From assembly GCA_000004695.1 (NCBI GenBank), contig CM000154.2, positions 2,496,001-2,560,000 on the forward strand: a stretch of 64,000 nucleotides of DNA, given 5' to 3'. The notes beneath the pieces are model-generated. The model did not search any database and was not told the origin of the DNA. It was given only the letters and a program-made list of their open reading frames with translations. This DNA comes from Dictyostelium discoideum (Eukaryota). Both the position numbers and the translations under genes were made by a program. Shown piece after piece: positions 1 to 54,213 of this stretch. Position 1 is the first letter of the stretch. Each line of letters starts with the position of its first letter.

Positions 1-1264
1 AAACACCTTGGTCAAAAGTTATTAGTGCTGATTCAGGAAGTGACCATTCAAAAATTTCTTATCAATTCAATAATATAGATAAAGTAGATAGCGGTGGCGG
101 TGGTGGGACTATTTGCTTTGGTGATTTAAATTGGCAAAGAAAGCAAGAGGCACGTGGAGGTGGTGCTTTTTGTAGTGATAAAATGAAATATCTTTCTGAA
201 TACTTTTACAGAAGAGTTGGTATAATTAGACACCCAGAGGAAAATCAATATCTTAAAAAAGAATTATTAAGATTAAATAGCATTGCAGGTCAAAAGTTGA
301 ATTTAAACGGATTAATAACTAAATATCCAAAGGAACTCAAAGTCATTTTAGGTGACAGAAAGCTAGACTTTGAAACCAAGGTTAAAGGTTATGGAGATGA
401 TGAAAAATACTATCATTTGAATCCATTTATTATCGTTTACAATAATGAAAAAGATGAAGATAAATTATTTTCAAATGAATATAATTATGGTTATGACAAT
501 GTTTATATTCCACTATTAACCCAACTTAAGGATCAAACTTCAACAAATAAATACAAATCAGAGTTATTCGATTTCAATGTGTTTCCATCAATTAAAAGGG
601 AAATTATTTTATGTGATGATAATGATGTCACTTGTAGATTTGAAAAATCCAAATCTTACCAATTGTATAAAGATATCTATGTTGAATCAACATTAACAGT
701 TACTTTAAAAGATAGACGTGTAAACGATGAAACAGAAAATACAATTGTTGTACCAACATCAACAGTCACACCTTTCCCAGACAAGATATATATCGATTTA
801 AAAACTGTGGATTCAGTTAAAAGACTCTATGAAAAATTGAATTTTAAAAAAAATGAAAACATCATTCAATTGAAAGAAGTCAATATAGAAGATTTAGAAA
901 AATTTAAATTCCCAGATGAAGGCGATCAAAGTGATAGCGAAGAAGGTCATGATGATAAAGATTATAATGAAATTAATAAAAAAATATGTAAAGCTTATCC
1001 AAGTGATACAGATTCAAAAATCATTAATTATCATCCGGATTGTCAAGATCATCTTATCTATTGTATTCTCTTAACAGAAAATAAACATGGTGATCTACAA
1101 AATATCAATTCCATTGAAGAGTTTAGAAAAGTTTTGGGTGAATATACCGAAGGTGTAAGTATTAAATTTATTTTATTTTAATTTAATTTTTTTAAAATTT
1201 AACTAATTCCAAAAATAAAATTTTTTAGTTTTTAAAATTGGATAAATGGTGCATTAAGAAATAA
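1..1264 (+). CDS. Hypothetical protein, 5'-partial (the gene starts upstream of the window). Exon 3..1154, and a candidate short terminal exon 1229..1264.
   Basis: The frame of the 183..1181 ORF stays open back to base 3, so the CDS enters from the window edge. The ORF ends at a consensus donor GGT|GTAAGT (1155). A plausible acceptor TTTTTTAG ends at 1228, followed by 11 codons and TAA. I recognise no family. Confidence 0.4.
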
Positions 1265-1717
1265 AAAAAAAAATTCTATTTTAAAATAAATATCACATTT
1301 AATTTTTTTTTAATGGTTAATCAAATAAAAAAATGAAGCTTGAAAATATGAAGATGGATGCCATAATTGAATTACTGTAGCCAGATTTTCTAATTATTCT
1401 TTTTGATTTAAACCATTGAATTTATCATTTTTTTGATTTTTAATTTCATCCTGTTTATCTTTTTCTAGTTTTTCTATTTCTTTTTTAATTTTGCTTTTAC
1501 CTTTACTATTACTATTACTATTAATAAAATATTAATTGGATAGTTAGCTATAATTTGACCCCTTGAATGTTACAAAAAGGTTAAAAATAATTTAGTTTTT
1601 TTATTAAAAAATTAAAATTAATTAGAAATATTCAGAGGAATAATTAATATTAATATTAGTAAACAATAATTAAAATGTTATACATGTAAAAACACTAAAA
1701 ATGAATTTTGTATCAAA

Positions 1718-3637
1718 TTAAATTATTGATAAAACCATGTTTTTATTTTGTTTTAATGCAAACATAAGTTGAATATGAAACTGAATAAGTGGAGTTTTTA
1801 TGGTATTATCTGTGCATGTTAGATAAGTTGAAAGATCATAATGAAGTTCTTTTTCATTTGTTGGACATTTGACATTAGTTCCAATCGTTGGTTGGAGATC
1901 TATTGAATATGGATTGGCTGAATCATAAATACATTTGGAATCATCATCAATTGATGGAGTTGGTGGTAATGTTGGTTCTGGAATTATGTTATCATCTTGT
2001 GATGGTTGAGATTTCATTGTACATCTATAGTATGGATAATCTGTGGTGCATGTAATTGAGTTCTTATAGAAAAAGATTTTAGAATGTCAATATAATCTTT
2101 TTCAGATACAGATGATACCCGTATCTGCTAAACAAGAAATCGTATTATTATCTTGACTTAATGATTCATCTTTTGAACATGAAAGTGTAGTATTCATAAT
2201 GAAGTAATTTTCAGTTTCATTATTATAACATCTTAATGGACTATTATTAGAGTGTGTTGATAATGAATTTTCAATGAGATTATATTGACATTCTAAAATA
2301 TTTGAATATTCATCATCTTCAATTGGATCGGATTAATTTTAATAGAAGTTTCTGTTTTTTCAATGGTTGTTGTTGGTTTATTATTAAATTTAACAACAAT
2401 TTCATCAGATCCATCATCATATTCTATAAAGTTATTACCAATAAAATTGGCTTCTCATATGAGAAGTAAACGGTTTCATTTGAATCTTGATTACCAACTT
2501 TAATAATAGTATTGAATTTATGGTTTTATTTTCATTCTGGTTGTAATGATCTGGTAACTCTTTTGGAATAAAGTTATTACCTGTTATTATAATTTCATTG
2601 TTACCATCTGTTGAAGAATAGTAATGTGTTTCATTTCCAGTGGAATTATTGATTGTATCAAGTTTTGGTGGATCGTAAGAATACAAATAATCAGTATGAT
2701 TTGGTGATTGAAGGCCTACTTTTACAATGATTGTATGATTAACACCAATTCCTGGTGGGATTGTACAATTTAATTCATAGGAACTGGTCCAATTAATTGA
2801 TTGACAAAGATAGCTTTCACCAATTAATATTTCTGATTGATTTAACCATTGTGCAATAGTTTCATTGTTTTCATAGTATGGACTTAAATTTTCGAATGGT
2901 AAAAAGTTGTAACCATTTATAACGATAACCTCACCACCATCAGTGTTTGTTGATAAAGAGTTTTGTGTTAATTTTTCAATCCATGGTTCATAATAAGAGT
3001 AGGTGAAAGTTTGGTTTTGGTATTCTGAAATTTTGATACTGATTGATTTATCTATACCAATCGAATCAGCTAAAATACAATTTACTATATCAAAGTTTTC
3101 ATCGATATATTGATAATTATTATATTTTAAATATTGACAAATTCCTTGATCTTTTATATCTATATCTTCAATAATTTCTAAACTTTCACAGAAATCGAAT
3201 TCGCAACTTGCATAAAACTCTTGATTGATAATAATATCCACTTGTTCTGCAATGTATGTACCTAAACCTCTACCTATTACTGTGAAATAATTTGTACCTG
3301 TTGTGTTTAATTTTGATTCATAATTTGAAAGAATGACTTGGTCTATAATTGGTGAAGGATAACTAAATGATATTTCTTCTAAACTGTATTGATCATCTGA
3401 ATGAACAACTACAAGTCCACTAATAAATCCAAATGGTGCTGAAGCAATAATCTCTTGGTTTGAAATGAATTCAATATCATTTATTAATATGTCTCCAATT
3501 TTTACTGATTGACCTTTTCTAAAATTATTACCATTAATTGTAACTTTTGTATTGTAATCTCCATTTGTTGGTAATATACTATTAATAATTGGTCTTTCAA
3601 ATGAAAATTCTAAATTAATATCATCGTTTATAAACAT
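1718..3637 (-). pseudogene. Remnant of an IPT/TIG-repeat cell-surface protein gene (Dictyostelium tiger/Tgr-like). The ORF 2435..3637 is intact, but the 3' part is disrupted by frame breaks.
   Basis: The 400-aa ORF contains repeated IPT/TIG-like strands (motifs ...VTINGNNF.., VIVINGYNF.., IIITGNNF.., then FIGNNFIEYDDGSDEIVVKF in a different frame). Below 2435 the coding signal jumps between all three frames, with in-frame stops at ~2300 and ~2440, before the final 99-aa ORF 1718..2017. The pieces lack both a signal peptide and a TM/tail region. Confidence 0.4.
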
Positions 3638-3740
3638 CGGTAAACTATCACTATAAAATAATTGAATGAAACTGTAAAAAAATATTTTTAAATATTAATA
3701 AATATTAATAAATTTTTTTTTTTAATTTTTTTTTTTTCAC

Positions 3741-4400
3741 TTACTTTAAAGAACCTAAACCAGAAGCAATAAATGAAAATGAATCAACTCCATTTATGCT
3801 TGTTAATCCAAATATAGTATCAGTTAATTCAAGATCATCAATAAAAACTTTGATTGTTAAAATATTATTTAAAATAATTGATTTATTTTTTGGTAAATCG
3901 TTGTCATTTCCTTTTGAATATAGTTTATCGCAAATGGATAATACTCTATCCAATGTTTTTAAATCTGCTCTAATTGTTGAAAGTTCAATGGCTCGAGGGT
4001 ATTGGGCAAGTTTTCCTAATGCAATTTCGTCATCTTGAAATAATTTATCATTTTCAATATTATCAAAAAAATAATTTAAAGATGTAAACTATATCTACTA
4101 TAATAATAATTTCGGTTGGATCTTCACCTTCTTTTTCATTTCCAAATTCTTTTTTTTTTGCCATTTTTTTCTTTTTTTTTTTTTTTTCTCCTTTTCTGTA
4201 TCATCCACATCACTCTCTTTTGGAATTTCTTGGTCTATTATTTTCATTATCCTCTTCATCTTTTTTAGTTTTTAATTTTTTTGATATTCTTTTTTTTTTA
4301 GTAATTAGTGAATTGATTGAATTTAAATCAATTGTTTCACCTTTTCCCCTTTTTTTTTTTGGAAAGTTCATCATTATAATCCATTTGTTTTTAAAAAATA
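3741..4400 (-). pseudogene. Partial, rearranged duplicate of the neighbouring gene 4724..7600. It carries a copy of that gene's 5' end/start region plus an internal segment, and lies directly upstream of the Tgr-like remnant.
   Basis: About 4110-4400 is nearly identical to ~7530-7800, including the ATG region, 5' flank and the motif ...gtaattagtgaattgattgaatttaaatcaattgtttcacc.... About 3890-4080 is nearly identical to ~5040-5230 and encodes ...STIRADLKTLDRVL(S/A)IC(D/E)KLYSKGNDN.... The 70-aa ORF 3741..3953 ends AAG|GTAAGTG and would splice in phase (2+1) onto the 2435..3637 ORF through acceptor TTTTTTACAG at ~3669. Confidence 0.45.
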
Positions 4401-4723
4401 ATTATTGGTGTGTTTGTGATTTTGGTGTTTTAAAAAAAAAAAAAAAAAAAAAAAGAAGTAAAAAAAAAAATAAAAAATAAAAATAAAAAAAACTGGGTCC
4501 AAGATAAAAAAAATTTGAATTTCTGATAAAAAAAATTATTTTCTTGGTTTTTTCTCTGTTTTTCAAATTTCCTCTTAAAAATATTTTATTTTTAATTTCT
4601 AAAAAATAAATAATAATAATAATAATAAAAATTCATATTTAAAGGTTTAAAAAAAAAAATAAAATAAAATAAAATAAAAAATAAAAAAAATCAAATAAAC
4701 AAATTAATAATTAACTAAAATCT

Positions 4724-7600
4724 TTATTTAAATCTATCTTGAAAATGAAAATAAATTGGTTTGGATGAATGTTTTTCAAATTGTATTTTTGTGATTATAA
4801 TAGTTGATAAGAGGAGATTTGTAAGTTTAATATTGTAATGACGTAAAGATATAAACACCAATTCACGTAAGTCATTTTGTGTAAATATACCATTTCTAAA
4901 ACTATCATTTGAGTTTAATTTTGATTTTGAATCTGTTTTCTTTTTAAAGATATACATATGATTTGATATAAGATATTCTATTGTGAAAATTTGTTGTTGA
5001 GAAACTGCAATTATTAAAATATTATAAAAAATAATTGATTCTATTTTTGATAAATTATTGTCATTTCCTTTTGAATATAGTTTCTCACAAATGGCTAATA
5101 CTCTATCCAATGTTTTTAAATCTGCTCTAATTGTTGAAAGTTCAATGACATGTTGGTATTGAATAAATTCTTCTAATGTAATTTCGTCATCTTGAAATAA
5201 TTTATCATTTTCAATATTATCAAAATAATAATTTAAAAGATGTAAACTATATCTACTTATATGACTATTTCTTGGTGAAAGATCTTGATAAATTTTAAAA
5301 GCAATACGAAGAGATTTAAGTGGGATTAAATTAAAATATCGACTCATAAAGTGGTCATCAATTTTTGGCCAATTTGGAAAACTTTGAACTATTTTAACTT
5401 GATCAATTAAACATTGGCAATAATCACTGTGATTTTCATAAAAATCTATTGGTTTAAATTGTAAAATTTTCTCTAAATTATATTTGTATGGATTTTTAAA
5501 AACATATTTAATAAAAGATACTGATAGTTTGGCCTGAGGGGAAAATGTTATTAATCTATAATATAAACTTTTATTTGCAATCATCATTTCGAGGTGTTTG
5601 GAATATTTTGGGTCTGCCATATTTGCAGTAAATGAAAAATGATGTAATTTGTTGAATAAATATTCAAACATTTCAATTGATTTGATATTTTCGAAAATTG
5701 AATGTTCACTTAATTGTTCATTCTGATCAGTTTTTTGAGCAACAATTAAACTTTTATTGACTCTAGAAAAAAAATAATCTACCAACTCTAAATTATTATT
5801 TTTAACAAGTAACATTAATAAAAAAATTGGAAATAATTTTTCGTTACTTGATGTAAGAATATCATTGATTAAATTATCTATTAATTCAATTTGAGATTCT
5901 TTTTTTGGACATTTTTTAAAAAGAATAAAGTTTTCATTTATAAAAAAGTATATATAAAGATTATCATCAATTTTAGATTTATATGTAAGGTCATCAAAAG
6001 AACATGTGGACCATATTCTATAATTTGCGTGTTCTAATATAATTTTTCCAAATGCGAATATATTTCTCGTTTCGACTGATATACTATTTAAAAGTTGGTA
6101 CAAATTAAAATCTTCTTTAACTTTAAATTCTCCTCTATAACAAATAAAGTATTCAACAAACCAATGTGATCTTGGATTGTTTACAATATGATAAATACTT
6201 AATAGTTTAGATATGGTTTCATTTTCTTTACATTGGTAATTAATTGGATGATAAACACTTGATTCTAGTTGATCATTTGAAAATGTTGATTTAATAAATT
6301 CAATTTTATTTTTAAATTCATCAATTAATAATTCAATTTCATTGCTATTGAATGACTCCTCTTTATGCCATGGATATTTAAATTGAATAGCAAGTTTTTT
6401 AAATGTTTCCCAATAATCTAATGAATCGAAAAAAGTGATCAATTCTATTAATGTTTTTAAATTTTCTTTTTTTTCAGATTTAAATAAATCAAATAAAATC
6501 CTAATGAGACTTGGAATTGCAGTATCTGAATGTTTTTCATTGGTTTTTAATAAGTTGATTAAATATTTTATTGTGTCATAATATTCATCATCTCTAGAAT
6601 TATAATTATAATTATAATTATAATTATAAATACTATAACTAAAATAATCAGAATTACTATAATAATATGAAATACCAGATACAATATTATCAATATTATT
6701 TTCAATTTCTCCATTGAAAATATGTGGTAATATAAGTTTAATAAATTCAAGTCTATAATCAGAGATTGAAGCCTTTAAATCTTGCATTGTTGGTGTGTAT
6801 AATGAATTTTCAATTAAAACTTGTAAACCTACAATACAATTTGCTGCTTTTAATTGATCTACTATAATTCCAAATTTATTATTATTGTCTAAAAATGGAA
6901 TTTGATCTTTATAATTTTTGCAAAGATTTCTATAAAATTCTTTATCATCTTGAATTTTTAAAAATATTTCATACCATCCCATTGTTTTTTCTACACGATT
7001 TAAAGTATGAAATACCTTTGGAAAAAATGATAAATATTTATTTGATTTTACTTTATCTTTTAAAATACTAATTTGATTATTTTTTAACATTGAGTCTACT
7101 GATACAATATGATCATATTGAATCATTGAGATTGTTAATGTCTGAGTGTGTAACATTATAGTTTTAAAAATTGATTTGTTTTTAAAAACTTTCCAAAATA
7201 ATAATTCATTTTCTCCATCTTTACCACCAATTGGAATAACTAATGAACCAAATGTATTTTTATTGAATGGATTGATATTATCTCTTTTAATTTTATTTTC
7301 AATGATTTCATTATTGATTTTTATAAAATTTTTTATTATTTCAATTAAGTCATGTTTTTTAATACCATTTTCAAATAAACCAATTGAGGTTGCAATGAAT
7401 TTAATTTCTTCTAAATTTTTATATTCTAGTTTATCGATTTTAACCTGATCCCATTTTATTGGTTTAGAATAATCAATTGGATCTTCATCTTCTTTTAAAG
7501 AGTCAATTGGGTCTTCATCTTCTTTTAAAGAGTCAATTGGATCTTCATCTTCTTTTTCATTTTCCAATTGTTTTTTTTTCTCCTTTTCTGTATCATCCAC
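4724..7600 (-). CDS. Hypothetical protein of 958 aa, single exon. The N-terminus has three tandem copies of KEDEDPIDSL, and there is an internal (YN)5 run.
   Basis: One uninterrupted ORF from ATG (7600) to the stop (4724). The start context is A-rich. The composition is Dictyostelium-like (N/K/I-rich). I recognise no family. It is the parent of the partial duplicate at 3741..4400. Confidence 0.6.
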   Translation of the reverse strand: MDDTEKEKKKQLENEKEDEDPIDSLKEDEDPIDSLKEDEDPIDYSKPIKWDQVKIDKLEYKNLEEIKFIATSIGLFENGIKKHDLIEIIKNFIKINNEIIENKIKRDNINPFNKNTFGSLVIPIGGKDGENELLFWKVFKNKSIFKTIMLHTQTLTISMIQYDHIVSVDSMLKNNQISILKDKVKSNKYLSFFPKVFHTLNRVEKTMGWYEIFLKIQDDKEFYRNLCKNYKDQIPFLDNNNKFGIIVDQLKAANCIVGLQVLIENSLYTPTMQDLKASISDYRLEFIKLILPHIFNGEIENNIDNIVSGISYYYSNSDYFSYSIYNYNYNYNYNSRDDEYYDTIKYLINLLKTNEKHSDTAIPSLIRILFDLFKSEKKENLKTLIELITFFDSLDYWETFKKLAIQFKYPWHKEESFNSNEIELLIDEFKNKIEFIKSTFSNDQLESSVYHPINYQCKENETISKLLSIYHIVNNPRSHWFVEYFICYRGEFKVKEDFNLYQLLNSISVETRNIFAFGKIILEHANYRIWSTCSFDDLTYKSKIDDNLYIYFFINENFILFKKCPKKESQIELIDNLINDILTSSNEKLFPIFLLMLLVKNNNLELVDYFFSRVNKSLIVAQKTDQNEQLSEHSIFENIKSIEMFEYLFNKLHHFSFTANMADPKYSKHLEMMIANKSLYYRLITFSPQAKLSVSFIKYVFKNPYKYNLEKILQFKPIDFYENHSDYCQCLIDQVKIVQSFPNWPKIDDHFMSRYFNLIPLKSLRIAFKIYQDLSPRNSHISRYSLHLLNYYFDNIENDKLFQDDEITLEEFIQYQHVIELSTIRADLKTLDRVLAICEKLYSKGNDNNLSKIESIIFYNILIIAVSQQQIFTIEYLISNHMYIFKKKTDSKSKLNSNDSFRNGIFTQNDLRELVFISLRHYNIKLTNLLLSTIIITKIQFEKHSSKPIYFHFQDRFK

Positions 7601-7821
7601 ATCAGTCTCTTTTGGAATTTCTTGGTCTATTATTTTATTTTCATCTTCCTCTTCATCTTTTTTAGTTTTTGATATTCTTTTTTTTTTTAGTAATTAGTGA
7701 ATTGATTGAATTTAAATCAATTGTTTCACCTTTTCCCCTTTTTTTTTTGGAAAATTCAGATAATAAATTATAATCCATTTGTTTTTAAAAAATAAAATTA
7801 ATTTGTTTGTTATTATTAAAC

Positions 7822-7852
<31 letters not shown>

Positions 7853-7874
7853 TACTGACAAAAATTTGTCAAAG

Positions 7875-7913
<39 letters not shown>

Positions 7914-8134
7914 AATTAAATATAGTGTTGAAATTTTTACATCGACCAAACTTAAAAAAACAGGTTTTTATTCTTTAAAAAAACTTCCTCTTATAGAATA
8001 TTATATTTTTGGTTTTTATTTTATTTTTTAATTTAAAAAATAAAATAATTGGTATAAAAAAAAGAAATGATTTTGAAATCTTGGATATTTTTTTTTTTTT
8101 TTTTTTCTTTATATATATTTATTTTATTTTATTT

Positions 8135-9958
8135 TCAAATTTTAAAATTATCAAATTGATTATTTTTATCAATTAAAGAACAATCATTCAAATAATTTAA
8201 AATATGCTCGAGTATTAAATAGTCGCCACTTCTTGGTAAAGGTTGTAATTTTTGATTTGAGAATCTCATTGAAGATTGTGGTGAATGATTTGGAGTGGCT
8301 AAAGGAGTTGCCAATGGTGTTAAATTTGAAGAAGGGATTGGAATTGTTGAAGCTGGTGTTGAATTTGTAAATAAATTAAAAGATGGTGGAATGGGTTGTT
8401 TTATTGATGAATAAAATTTAAGTGTTTCATTCAATGTCATTGCTTTTCCTAATAATTCTCTAAGTTTATCCTCTAAAAACATTATACAAGTTTCTGGTGG
8501 CATTCCAATTGTCCAAAAATAAACTATTGATGATAAAACTGATGATATATAATCTGATGATACACCATTTAATACTTTAATATCAGGATATGATACATTA
8601 TTTCTAATTTAAATTTAAAAAATTAAAAAAATTAATATATATATATATATATTTTTACGAAATTAAAATAATAAATAATAAAACAATTTACATTTGAACA
8701 GGAGGATTTGAAGAAAGCCAAAGATTTTCTTTACTACAAATTATAATATCAACTTTACATCTTGTAACATCAGCAATGATAGCATTTGATTCTTTAATTG
8801 GAGAAGAGAAAGGATGATGATCAACCCATAATCTAAGATCTTCAATTAATTTTGGATAGAAATCATCTTTTTGTAATGCCATTATTGAGAAATCACTAAT
8901 ATACTTTGAAGAGCATGTACCAGTTAGTGATCTTGAAATATCGAAAAAGTAATTTGGTAACTTTAAATTTTGTGTTCCAATCGTATAATCTGTATGTTGT
9001 GATTTCGCTGATAATGATAATGATTCATTAAAATGATCATTTAATAATTTACTTGTATTTGATTTAATATGTGATGGATGATGTTGTTGTTGTTGATGAT
9101 TATGTGATGATGATGATGATGATGATGAGGATGGTGATTGTTGTTGTTGTTGTTGTTGTTGATTATCTTGTTGATTATCCAAAAAGTTTATTAAAAATTC
9201 ATTTTCATTATATAATGGTTTATGAGTTTGTTGAGTATTTGATAAAAAGTTTTTATTTATAATTAATTCAAAAGTTCTCCAAAAGTAACTAACTATATTC
9301 AATAATTTCTTTGATAAATCATCCTTTTGAGATAATATTATTAGTTTACTTAGTTTATAATTTCCTCTATTATTTTTACAACCTGGTGAAATACAACCAC
9401 TATATCCATAAATTTGAGATAATTGATAAAGAAATTGATTTTGAAAATTATAATCGTTATTGCATTTTTCATTTGTACATCTAAATGATGGTGAATTTCC
9501 ATTTGCTGATAATATATTACTTAACCATGTTTGATTATATGATAGAATCGTTGAAATTAAATTTGATAAAAAACTAAAATAAAAAATAAAAAAAAAAAAA
9601 AAAAAAGGTTAAAAATCTATACAAACCCCTAATAATTAATAGATACATACAATTTTGATTTTTGAGAATTATAAATTGGTAATAATTCTCTTAAACTTTC
9701 TAATAAAACTACATATGTTTGTCTTTTTGTACTTGGATTTGTTAATGTATCCAACCATAAAGGTTTTTCCAATCTTGGTGCTGTATAAAAATCTTTAATA
9801 TAAACTCTAAATTTTTCAACCTCAGCATATAATTGATTAATTTCTGTAACTCCAAATCCATTTAGCTATTAATAATAAAAAAAAAAAAAAAAATAAAAAA
9901 AAAAAAAATAAAAAAAATAAAAAAAAATAAAAAAAAAAAAAGAATTAGTTTAAAGTGA

Positions 9959-54131: not shown

Positions 54132-54213
54132 TGTAAGCTAAGGGATTCGAACCCTTGTATCAATGATATTGCAGCCTTAATGCAACCCCTTAGACCAGCT
54201 CGGGCAAGCTTAC
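54132..54213 (-). tRNA. tRNA-Leu (anticodon AAG), 82 nt, no intron
   Basis: On the minus strand: GTAAGCT TG CCC-GAGCTGGTCTAA-GGG G TTGCA-TTAAGGC-TGCAA TATCATTGATAC AAGGG-TTCGAAT-CCCTT AGCTTAC A. The 7-bp acceptor stem pairs perfectly. The D-stem is 3 bp with a large loop, and the variable arm is long (a type II tRNA). U33 and G37 are present. The A-box (TGGTCTAAGG) and B-box (GGTTCGAATCC) are intact. Confidence 0.75.

Follow-up and report, generated by a model that had tools for sequence, protein, structure and literature searches.

A probable duplicated relic of DDB_G0289227 joined in frame to an IPT/TIG gene fragment in Dictyostelium discoideum AX4

Sdic and jingwei of Drosophila are chimeric genes that arose by duplication and fusion. 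Unprocessed pseudogenes and the tandem turnover of gene families are other described systems that lie close to the case presented here. Within Dictyostelium discoideum, partial gene-fragment duplicates are found near TIG genes at the tgrBC locus, according to two reports (PMC12745789; bioRxiv 10.1101/2025.10.22.684067). Here, we analysed a locus of D. discoideum AX4 chromosome 5 in which copied parts of the gene DDB_G0289227 (the parent) run in frame into an open reading frame (ORF) encoding IPT/TIG domains. It lies near the left end of a window of 64,000 nucleotides (nt), the whole stretch of DNA that was analysed.

The locus behaves like an ordinary duplicated pseudogene in birth-and-death turnover. 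As in other unprocessed pseudogenes, a tandem copy with its upstream flank appears to have undergone deletion, frameshifts and an insertion, and independent tandem and decayed copies of the same family are present in sister genomes. Unlike in a typical duplicated pseudogene, the relic is in frame with foreign coding sequence and is databased as protein-coding. The likeness to Sdic and jingwei is that, after deletions or insertions, one gene's duplicated 5′ region, promoter included, continues in frame into a portion of another. In contrast to those genes, the ancestral start is frameshifted here, and the TIG fragment lacks the N-terminal 928 residues and most of the C-terminal part of its source. 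The tgrBC locus is on chromosome 3, whereas the present one is on chromosome 5 and the duplicated gene is no tgr gene.

The parent corresponds to a 958-codon ORF on the minus strand (protein P0003). The copy and the IPT/TIG ORF together were already public as DDB_G0289225 (P0001, UniProt Q54HU2, 528 residues), whose product is named only 'IPT/TIG domain-containing protein' in the database. We rebuilt the exons of P0001 on the minus strand at 4164-4128, 4033-3745, 3650-2581 and 2292-2102. The same fusion is modelled in the AX2 counterpart, ACTFIT_000944 (P0016). The fusion itself is already a database gene model; the origin of its parts is new, to judge from the literature that could be searched. 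We read the feature as a structural scar particular to this lineage and not as a designed gene; most likely it has no function and is the relic of a duplicated pseudogene joined to part of another gene. As a finding it is ordinary and of limited general interest, with practical consequences for annotation. These are its main value: DDB_G0289225 and its AX2 counterpart are probably gene-finder constructs over a fusion of a pseudogene and a gene fragment.

A series of events can be proposed for this structure. DDB_G0289227 and its upstream flank would have been duplicated in tandem in the AX4/AX2 lineage, as a unit of about 3.39 kb. The downstream copy then seems to have lost about 2.25 kb between TTGG..GATCTT repeats, so that its start (piece A) adjoins a segment from further inside the gene (piece B). 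DNA of 6.3 kb from elsewhere would next have been inserted into the copy. With it would have come a DNase II-like gene, the central portion of a large secreted multi-TIG gene and a diverged fragment from the parent's family. The insertion would have displaced the last 98 codons of the copy (piece C) 6.3 kb downstream, beyond the window. At its left junction piece B is in frame, presumably by chance, with the TIG exon, the intron and the TIG ORF, giving 524 codons. Finally, gene finders may have made DDB_G0289225 from this frame by way of patch introns. The gap in the copy, the inserted block and the in-frame junction are seen in the sequence itself, and the mechanisms behind the first two are inferred. 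The series is reconstructable (duplication, microhomology deletion, 6.3-kb insertion), with empty-site alleles in sister genomes, and the locus could serve as a small case study of Dictyostelium genome rearrangement beyond the tgrBC hotspot. The features are listed in Table 1. Positions marked L008 refer to the corresponding locus in an independent Nanopore and Illumina assembly of AX2-214, which we reached through AX2 proteins clustering with the AX4 proteins and which extends 8.6 kb past the left end of the window. The strain identity of that assembly is taken from PMC12745789.

Table 1. Coordinates of the features at the DDB_G0289225/DDB_G0289227 locus. Positions are those of the window unless marked L008.
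Feature	Position	Strand	Description
Parent long ORF	4724..7600	-	958 codons; annotated P0003 starts at an internal Met
Parent ancestral 5′ coding region	7601..7777	-	ancestral ATG 7775-7777 (MDYNLLSEFSKKKRGKGETIDL...)
Piece A	4116..4492	-	equals parent 7537-7890: upstream flank, ATG 4383-4385, first ~90 codons
A/B junction	4103..4115	-	putative internal deletion of ~2.25 kb; in-frame stops; parent equivalents ~5293 to 7476-7536
Piece B	3853..4102	-	equals parent 5010-5261; parental frame open for 77 codons (SLNYFFDNIENDKLFQDDEIALGK...NNILTI)
Piece C	L008 16721-17073, outside window		equals parent 5018-4665; 93%; last 98 codons and 3′ flank
Inserted block	L008 10408-16720; in-window part 1..3852	.	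runs 2461 nt beyond the left end of the window
Left copy of 9-nt target-site-like duplication	3853..3861	-	TTTAACAAT
Right copy of 9-nt target-site-like duplication	at L008 16721, outside window		TTTAATAAT
TIG-gene exon segment	3745..3852	-	KVFIDDLELTDTIFGLTSINGVDSFSFIASGLGSL; in frame with piece B; D. purpureum ORF residues 929-962
TIG-gene intron	3672..3744	-	73 nt, GTAAGTG...TTTTTTACAG, 93% A+T, phase 2
IPT/TIG exon with 400-codon ATG ORF 2435..3637	2435..3671	-	D. purpureum residues 967-1356, 41% identity
Decayed TIG 3′ part	2039..2504	-	short D. purpureum matches in three frames, large deletions between them, two in-frame stops
DNase II-like gene, 3′ part	1..1181	+	ORF open to window start; inside the block
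Predicted chimeric product			contains the stretches ...NNILTIKVFIDD... and ...GLGSLNFIQLFY...

The IPT/TIG assignment of the 400-codon ORF, made earlier from the sequence, was confirmed by Pfam (PF01833, E 1.4e-18, two stretches), and the domain is also found in P0001 (E 2.5e-14). The closest homologue is a D. purpureum gene (P0002, locus L001) with an ORF of 2168 codons at L001 7217..13723 that contains 11 TIG stretches. When this ORF was compared with the window by TBLASTN, residues 929-962 mapped to 3854-3753 and residues 967-1356 to 3667-2504, with no match anywhere in the window to the N-terminal 928 residues. TIG homology starts at the breakpoint (3854), where DDB_G0289227 homology stops (3853). 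The sequence into which the copied frame continues had been described as unique; it is instead the first 108 nt of the insertion, and it is a TIG exon. Because this TIG exon lies at the edge of the insertion, the following intron is native to the TIG gene, and exon, intron and 400-codon ORF are all TIG-gene sequence. D. purpureum has one uninterrupted ORF here (...ASSYGKINIIKVYYLNNLIMKFGEDV...), which is gap-free against the spliced AX4 product. A search of AX4 proteins returned no other one resembling the TIG fragment.

The splice proposed in the earlier note, from the copied frame into the IPT/TIG ORF in phase through a consensus intron, agrees with the public models, which fuse the two likewise. 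Its sites and phase hold; its exact donor and length do not. The donor context is ...TTA AA/GTAAGTG, not AAG/GTAAGTG, and the intron runs from 3744 over 73 nt, not 80. The in-phase splice product reads ...ASGLGSL-N-FIQLFYSDSLPMFINDD.... In the AX4 annotation the acceptor (TTTTATAG) lies 21 nt further (intron 3744..3651, exon from 3650). This acceptor is disfavoured because it drops FIQLFYS, a run of seven codons whose position is conserved in D. purpureum (IIKVYYL), and the comparative data support the acceptor at 3672 (TTTTTTACAG) as the probable one. The view of the TIG part as a remnant was borne out: its 3′ part is decayed, and only residues 929-1356 and scraps of the 2168-codon ORF are present. 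Past 2504 these remnants match residues 1388-1408 or 1484-1504, 1702-1734 and 2077-2154; two in-frame stops interrupt the last of these matches. In the AX4 annotation, the third intron (2580..2293, non-consensus donor GTAATA) starts within coding homology (GTNFIPKDL) and is probably a gene-finder patch. The A+T content of annotated introns 1 and 3 is exon-like (81% and 75%, respectively), versus 92-93% for the real intron.

Whether the fused frame is a relic or a working gene was weighed from these structures. The earlier note had left the choice between a decayed pseudogene and a promoter capture; we favour the former as the probable state, and a chimeric working gene remains the minority reading. 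The copy is disabled by the 2.25-kb deletion and the 6.3-kb insertion, by stops where pieces A and B meet and by frameshifts downstream of the ATG. The frame of piece A is broken after the ATG by two 5-nt deletions and one 1-nt insertion, and in a three-frame translation the frame of the copy's ancestral ATG meets a stop 15 codons on. The open frame holds no ATG before Met-3637. With a frameshifted ATG, junction stops and no such start codon, the suggestion that the TIG gene had acquired a new promoter and first exon is not supported. The database models supply starts of their own: MAKKKEFGNEKE in AX4, with donor GTGAAG (intron 4127..4034), and MKRIMKIIDQEIPKESD in AX2, with donor GTGGAT (intron GTGGAT...TATAG). 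Both first introns are non-consensus, and both cross sequence homologous to parental coding DNA.

Several points weigh against a relic, or against the proposed series of events. The central frame (4082..3745 plus 3671..2438) is free of stops and frameshifts over its 524 codons, piece B joins the TIG exon in frame, and the copy has kept the proximal part of its upstream region. A stop would result from about 6% of the point substitutions in this frame, and each branch has accumulated about 0.04 substitutions per site since the duplication. By our own arithmetic from substitution rate and stop fraction, about 3.2 stops would be expected in the 447 TIG-native codons if these had been neutral since the duplication, with a probability of about 0.04 that none would occur. 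This points to constraint of some kind or to an insertion at a later date; the intact frame is not significant evidence if the insertion is later than the duplication. The ratio of nonsynonymous to synonymous substitution (Ka/Ks or dN/dS) between copy and parent is 0.99 in piece B, versus 0.77-0.89 for true orthologues of the parent over about 920 codons. Ka/Ks was dropped as a test of function, since bona fide orthologues of the family are already at those values. No transcript data were found in the full-text literature for both gene IDs or in the available supplements of several transcriptome papers and the tgr preprint. The source of the 6.3-kb block was not located, no search aimed at it having been made. 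In addition, the 9-nt duplication that flanks the block could be due to chance, given its one mismatch and very A+T-rich DNA.

A working young chimeric gene, with a duplicated promoter and a cytosolic two-TIG protein as its product, or a TIG-only product from Met-3637, is unlikely on balance. It would account for the in-frame junction and the 524 lesion-free codons, but with an insertion that postdates the duplication, neutral drift would leave such a frame intact with no great improbability. The intron is genuine and its position is conserved, and at least 30-110 nt of upstream flank were duplicated; yet no in-frame ATG precedes Met-3637 and the ancestral ATG stops after 15 codons. The gene is annotated in two genomes (AX4 and AX2), but the two models need different, non-consensus, exon-like introns over coding-homologous sequence. 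The TIG part has a dN/dS of 0.38 against D. purpureum, a value to be read with synonymous divergence (dS) saturated; on the other hand, its 3′ part is decayed, and a TIG protein of extracellular type would here lack its signal peptide. The literature searched held no expression record. In a weaker version only the 400-residue TIG ORF would be translated from Met-3637, and the chimeric part would serve as 5′ untranslated region. That a gene was recently born in the lab-strain lineage, with the 524-codon frame as a footprint of selection and a cytosolic two-TIG protein as its product, seems to us quite unlikely. If the fused frame were expressed and constrained, the locus would show, step by step and in a datable way, how a new gene arose in an amoebozoan through duplication, deletion and the capture of DNA. 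Sister genomes preserve the empty site and intermediate stages, a full tandem pair among them. Exact-product look-ups for P0001, P0003 and the 400-residue ORF were empty in assemblies including assembled read sets.

Under the favoured reading of the locus as a relic, the TIG fragment came with the inserted block. The left junction was mapped to 3852/3853 (+/-2 nt), at a target position equivalent to parent 5010-5018. The block contains the TIG fragment and the DNase II-like gene, and its right end holds a diverged fragment related to the parent's family. On either side of the block lies one copy of a 9-nt duplication (TTTAAYAAT) with one mismatch, within sequence of 78% A+T. The earlier note had suggested a comparison with other genomes. 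AX2 has the same structure, and the block is wholly absent from the three D. discoideum-complex genomes compared (L002, L003 and L004), in which the empty site is uninterrupted and with which colinearity resumes exactly at L008 16721. Alternatively, the block could be ancestral, with the TIG gene as the original neighbour, and could have been deleted in the other lineages. Just four non-lab genomes were compared, and the AX4-L002 distance is about equal to the copy-parent distance, so that the order of events is poorly resolved. However, the coding sequence is unbroken precisely at the insertion point in L002, L003 and L004, and three precise excisions, each restoring an open frame, would be needed. 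The block also splits a coding sequence, a few bases of which are repeated on its two sides. We regard an ancestral block as very improbable.

With a possible 9-nt direct duplication around a 6.3-kb insertion and an intact empty site elsewhere, the locus resembles the target-site duplications left by transposable elements or by DNA captured at staggered breaks. Unlike in transposable elements, there are no terminal repeats and no transposase or reverse transcriptase, and both ends lie within gene fragments. A search of the block ends for terminal inverted or long terminal repeats returned only low-complexity repeats. Neither transposase nor reverse transcriptase is among the called genes of the block, whose precomputed Pfam matches are TIG and DNase_II only. 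A transposon origin was considered and rejected: the block has neither terminal repeats nor transposon domains, and the only tRNA gene is 50 kb off. At L008 16205-16720 there is a 164-codon ORF with similarity to the DDB_G0289227 family over residues ~180-280 (33-35% identity, E 9e-5, range 1e-4 to 3e-6). A distant-paralogue fragment of the interrupted gene thus sits just within the right end of the insertion.

The local duplication of the neighbouring gene, proposed earlier between 3860-4400 and 4724..7600, was confirmed by BLASTN self-alignment (E ~1e-90), with significant identity of 85-91% between the two regions. Positions 3853-4102 align with 5010-5261 (89.7% over 253 nt, E 1e-90), 4116-4158 with 7537-7579 (90.7%) and 4176-4417 with 7568-7810 (88.4%), the last match extending to 4176-4492 against 7568-7890 (85.1%, E 1e-90). 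A repeat search returned identical pairs, at offsets of 1157 and 3389-3397 (~3392). There is no further match of comparable level anywhere in the 64-kb window by self-alignment. The ATG was copied together with 30-110 nt of upstream flank. The non-coding flank at 4386-4492 matches 7778-7890 upstream of the parent; the significance of 4400-4492 is z 4.5, and homology past 4492 is insignificant (z 1.7 versus shuffles). A duplication through the whole spacer (4493-4723 versus 7891-8134) was rejected, since it showed only a colinear patch at z 1.7 and permissive BLASTN gave low-complexity noise. At the A/B junction the copy can be traced into parent ~5276-5292 and then picks up at 7537, with TTGG..GATCTT microhomology at both ends of the deletion. 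Its distal endpoint is ambiguous by up to 60 nt owing to a 30-nt repeat at 7473-7556.

The earlier note had read these matches as two non-contiguous pieces of the parent, copied and juxtaposed. Taken literally, as independent copying and pasting beside a pre-existing TIG remnant, this model fits what is visible within the window, namely pieces A and B only. However, all three pieces (A, B and C) share one orientation and follow the order of the parent, the distance of piece A from the parent is one unit length (~3.39 kb), and the gap between the offsets (1157 versus 3392) has the size of one internal deletion. The microhomology at the A/B junction is typical of deletion. Moreover, it is clear from piece C and the flanking duplication that the TIG fragment entered the copy by insertion, and related genomes hold the gene (one of them a full tandem pair) without the TIG fragment. 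We consider the literal model, which L008 contradicts, highly improbable. Because of the colinearity, the unit-length spacing and the microhomology deletion, the pieces are best read as the remains of a whole-gene tandem duplicate and not as separately copied bits.

Copy and parent are each other's nearest relatives. Over 866 alignable nt from the three pieces, their distance is 0.085, versus 0.10-0.12 to L002/L004, and with the three pieces concatenated the parent is the sequence nearest to the copy in 979/1000 bootstraps. The copy has 35 derived changes and the parent 31, and the copy retains ancestral states lost in the parent (KKLK, DDEIAL and SIILNNIL). Because the copy-parent distance is smaller than the distance to L002/L004, we would place the duplication in the AX4/AX2 lineage, probably soon after its split from the tropical isolates. 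Neighbour-joining trees of single segments were unresolved, and only the three-piece concatenation gave a clear nearest-neighbour signal. The tandem pair in L003 was rejected as an orthologue of the AX4 duplicate: the L003 copies are closest to each other (2.4-7.8% apart), and the spacer content differs.

An artefact of the AX4 reference assembly or its sequencing, which an A+T-rich, homopolymer-laden region might invite, is refuted because the independent AX2-214 assembly agrees over window 1-8200, being identical except for two poly-T lengths and one intergenic base. The sole AX4/AX2 differences in these 8.2 kb are at 7847-7852 and 7905-7912, where AX2 has 6 and 8 nt fewer in two long poly-T/A runs, and at 4509 (T/C), in the spacer between parent and copy.

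The parent itself is damaged in AX4 and AX2, its ancestral ATG being out of frame with the 958-codon ORF. The lesion lies at ~7668-7688 and consists of a 9-nt deletion and one extra A in an A-run (net -8 nt); in the alignment it is absent from the copy and from four other genomes. The annotated parent protein starts ~188 codons in. A further consequence for annotation is that the lab strains have lost the ancestral start of DDB_G0289227. Other Dictyostelium assemblies hold full-length relatives of 980-1000 residues with a single ORF, among them the orthologues P0006, P0007 and P0008, and full-length relatives all start with MD(Y/N)NL.SELSKKKRGKGETIDLNSINSL.TKKKRISKKLK.... No Pfam domain was found in the parent family, and an exhaustive HMMER search found relatives only in Dictyostelium.

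The family keeps ORFs of ~950-1000 codons though its dN/dS is 0.77-0.89 between D. discoideum-complex genomes; the arrestin-like neighbour has a dN/dS of 0.26-0.58. Tandem duplication has occurred repeatedly, with two copies in L003, three in D. dimigraforme (L006) and a frameshifted copy in L004. The pair in L003 (10001-16240; D. cf. discoideum, a cryptic sister lineage) is independent, with copies 2.4-7.8% apart. Its second copy is fragmented into models of 623 and 117 residues, and its spacer holds sequence unseen in AX4. Close to the N-terminus of the parent, the 30-nt tandem repeat (2.8 copies, 96% matches) gives three units of EDEDPIDSLK, compared with one or two in other genomes.

Membership of the TIG part in the Tgr (tiger) family, to which the earlier note had assigned it, is not established: TIG repeats are present, and a signal peptide and a transmembrane segment are absent from the predicted product. 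The likeness lies in the IPT/TIG domains (PF01833) and in the look of a decayed family member. Unlike the Tgr proteins (signal peptide, IPT/Ig-like repeats, transmembrane segment), neither the AX4 product nor the 2168-codon D. purpureum ORF has a signal peptide or transmembrane segment. The D. purpureum homologue also differs, with its 11 TIG stretches and a long Cys-rich N-terminal region, and is much larger than the Tgr proteins. Both public models start with charged, non-hydrophobic, duplicate-derived sequence (MAKKKEFGNEKE... in AX4 and MKRIMKIIDQE... in AX2), and a hydropathy scan showed no hydrophobic window at the N-terminus of DDB_G0289225. Similarly, no 19-residue window with a mean Kyte-Doolittle value of at least 1.6 was detected in P0001 or in the 2168-residue D. 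purpureum ORF, by a scan that is crude and for a D. purpureum gene whose true C-terminus may sit in a further exon. A transmembrane segment is a Tgr criterion, though some members (e.g., TgrB2) are without one. In the tgr preprint, the definition of the family includes an N-terminal signal sequence, and many AX4 tgr loci are similarly decayed (bioRxiv 10.1101/2025.10.22.684067). Neither of the two gene IDs was found in the available parts of the text and supplement of the tgr papers.

The public model of the D. purpureum homologue, DICPUDRAFT_36081 (GL871123.1), is annotated as 'partial', with 493 residues over a span of 3.7 kb. Compared with the 2168-codon ORF, it is badly under-called, and the gene is under-annotated. 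Further Cys-rich ORFs are found in L001 upstream of this ORF, and a signal-peptide-like start (MKKNKKIIFLFLLIFIIQSSF...) lies several kb upstream, in a part of the gene that has no counterpart in AX4.

Finally, the DNase II-like gene (window 5-1333) has a paralogue of 90-91% identity (90.9%) at L007 10245-11614, on an AX2 contig (ACTFIT_007376). This paralogue adjoins an unrelated ComC-type TIG/EGF gene, convergent as in the window. L007 was rejected as the orthologous locus of the left end of the window (with a synteny break at ~1333), since L007 and L008 come from one AX2 genome, which makes L007 a paralogue. A search of AX4 proteins returned none for the DNase II-like copy in the window. 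The only tRNA gene in the window is a tRNA-Leu (AAG) at 54132-54213 on the minus strand, 50 kb from the fused frame.

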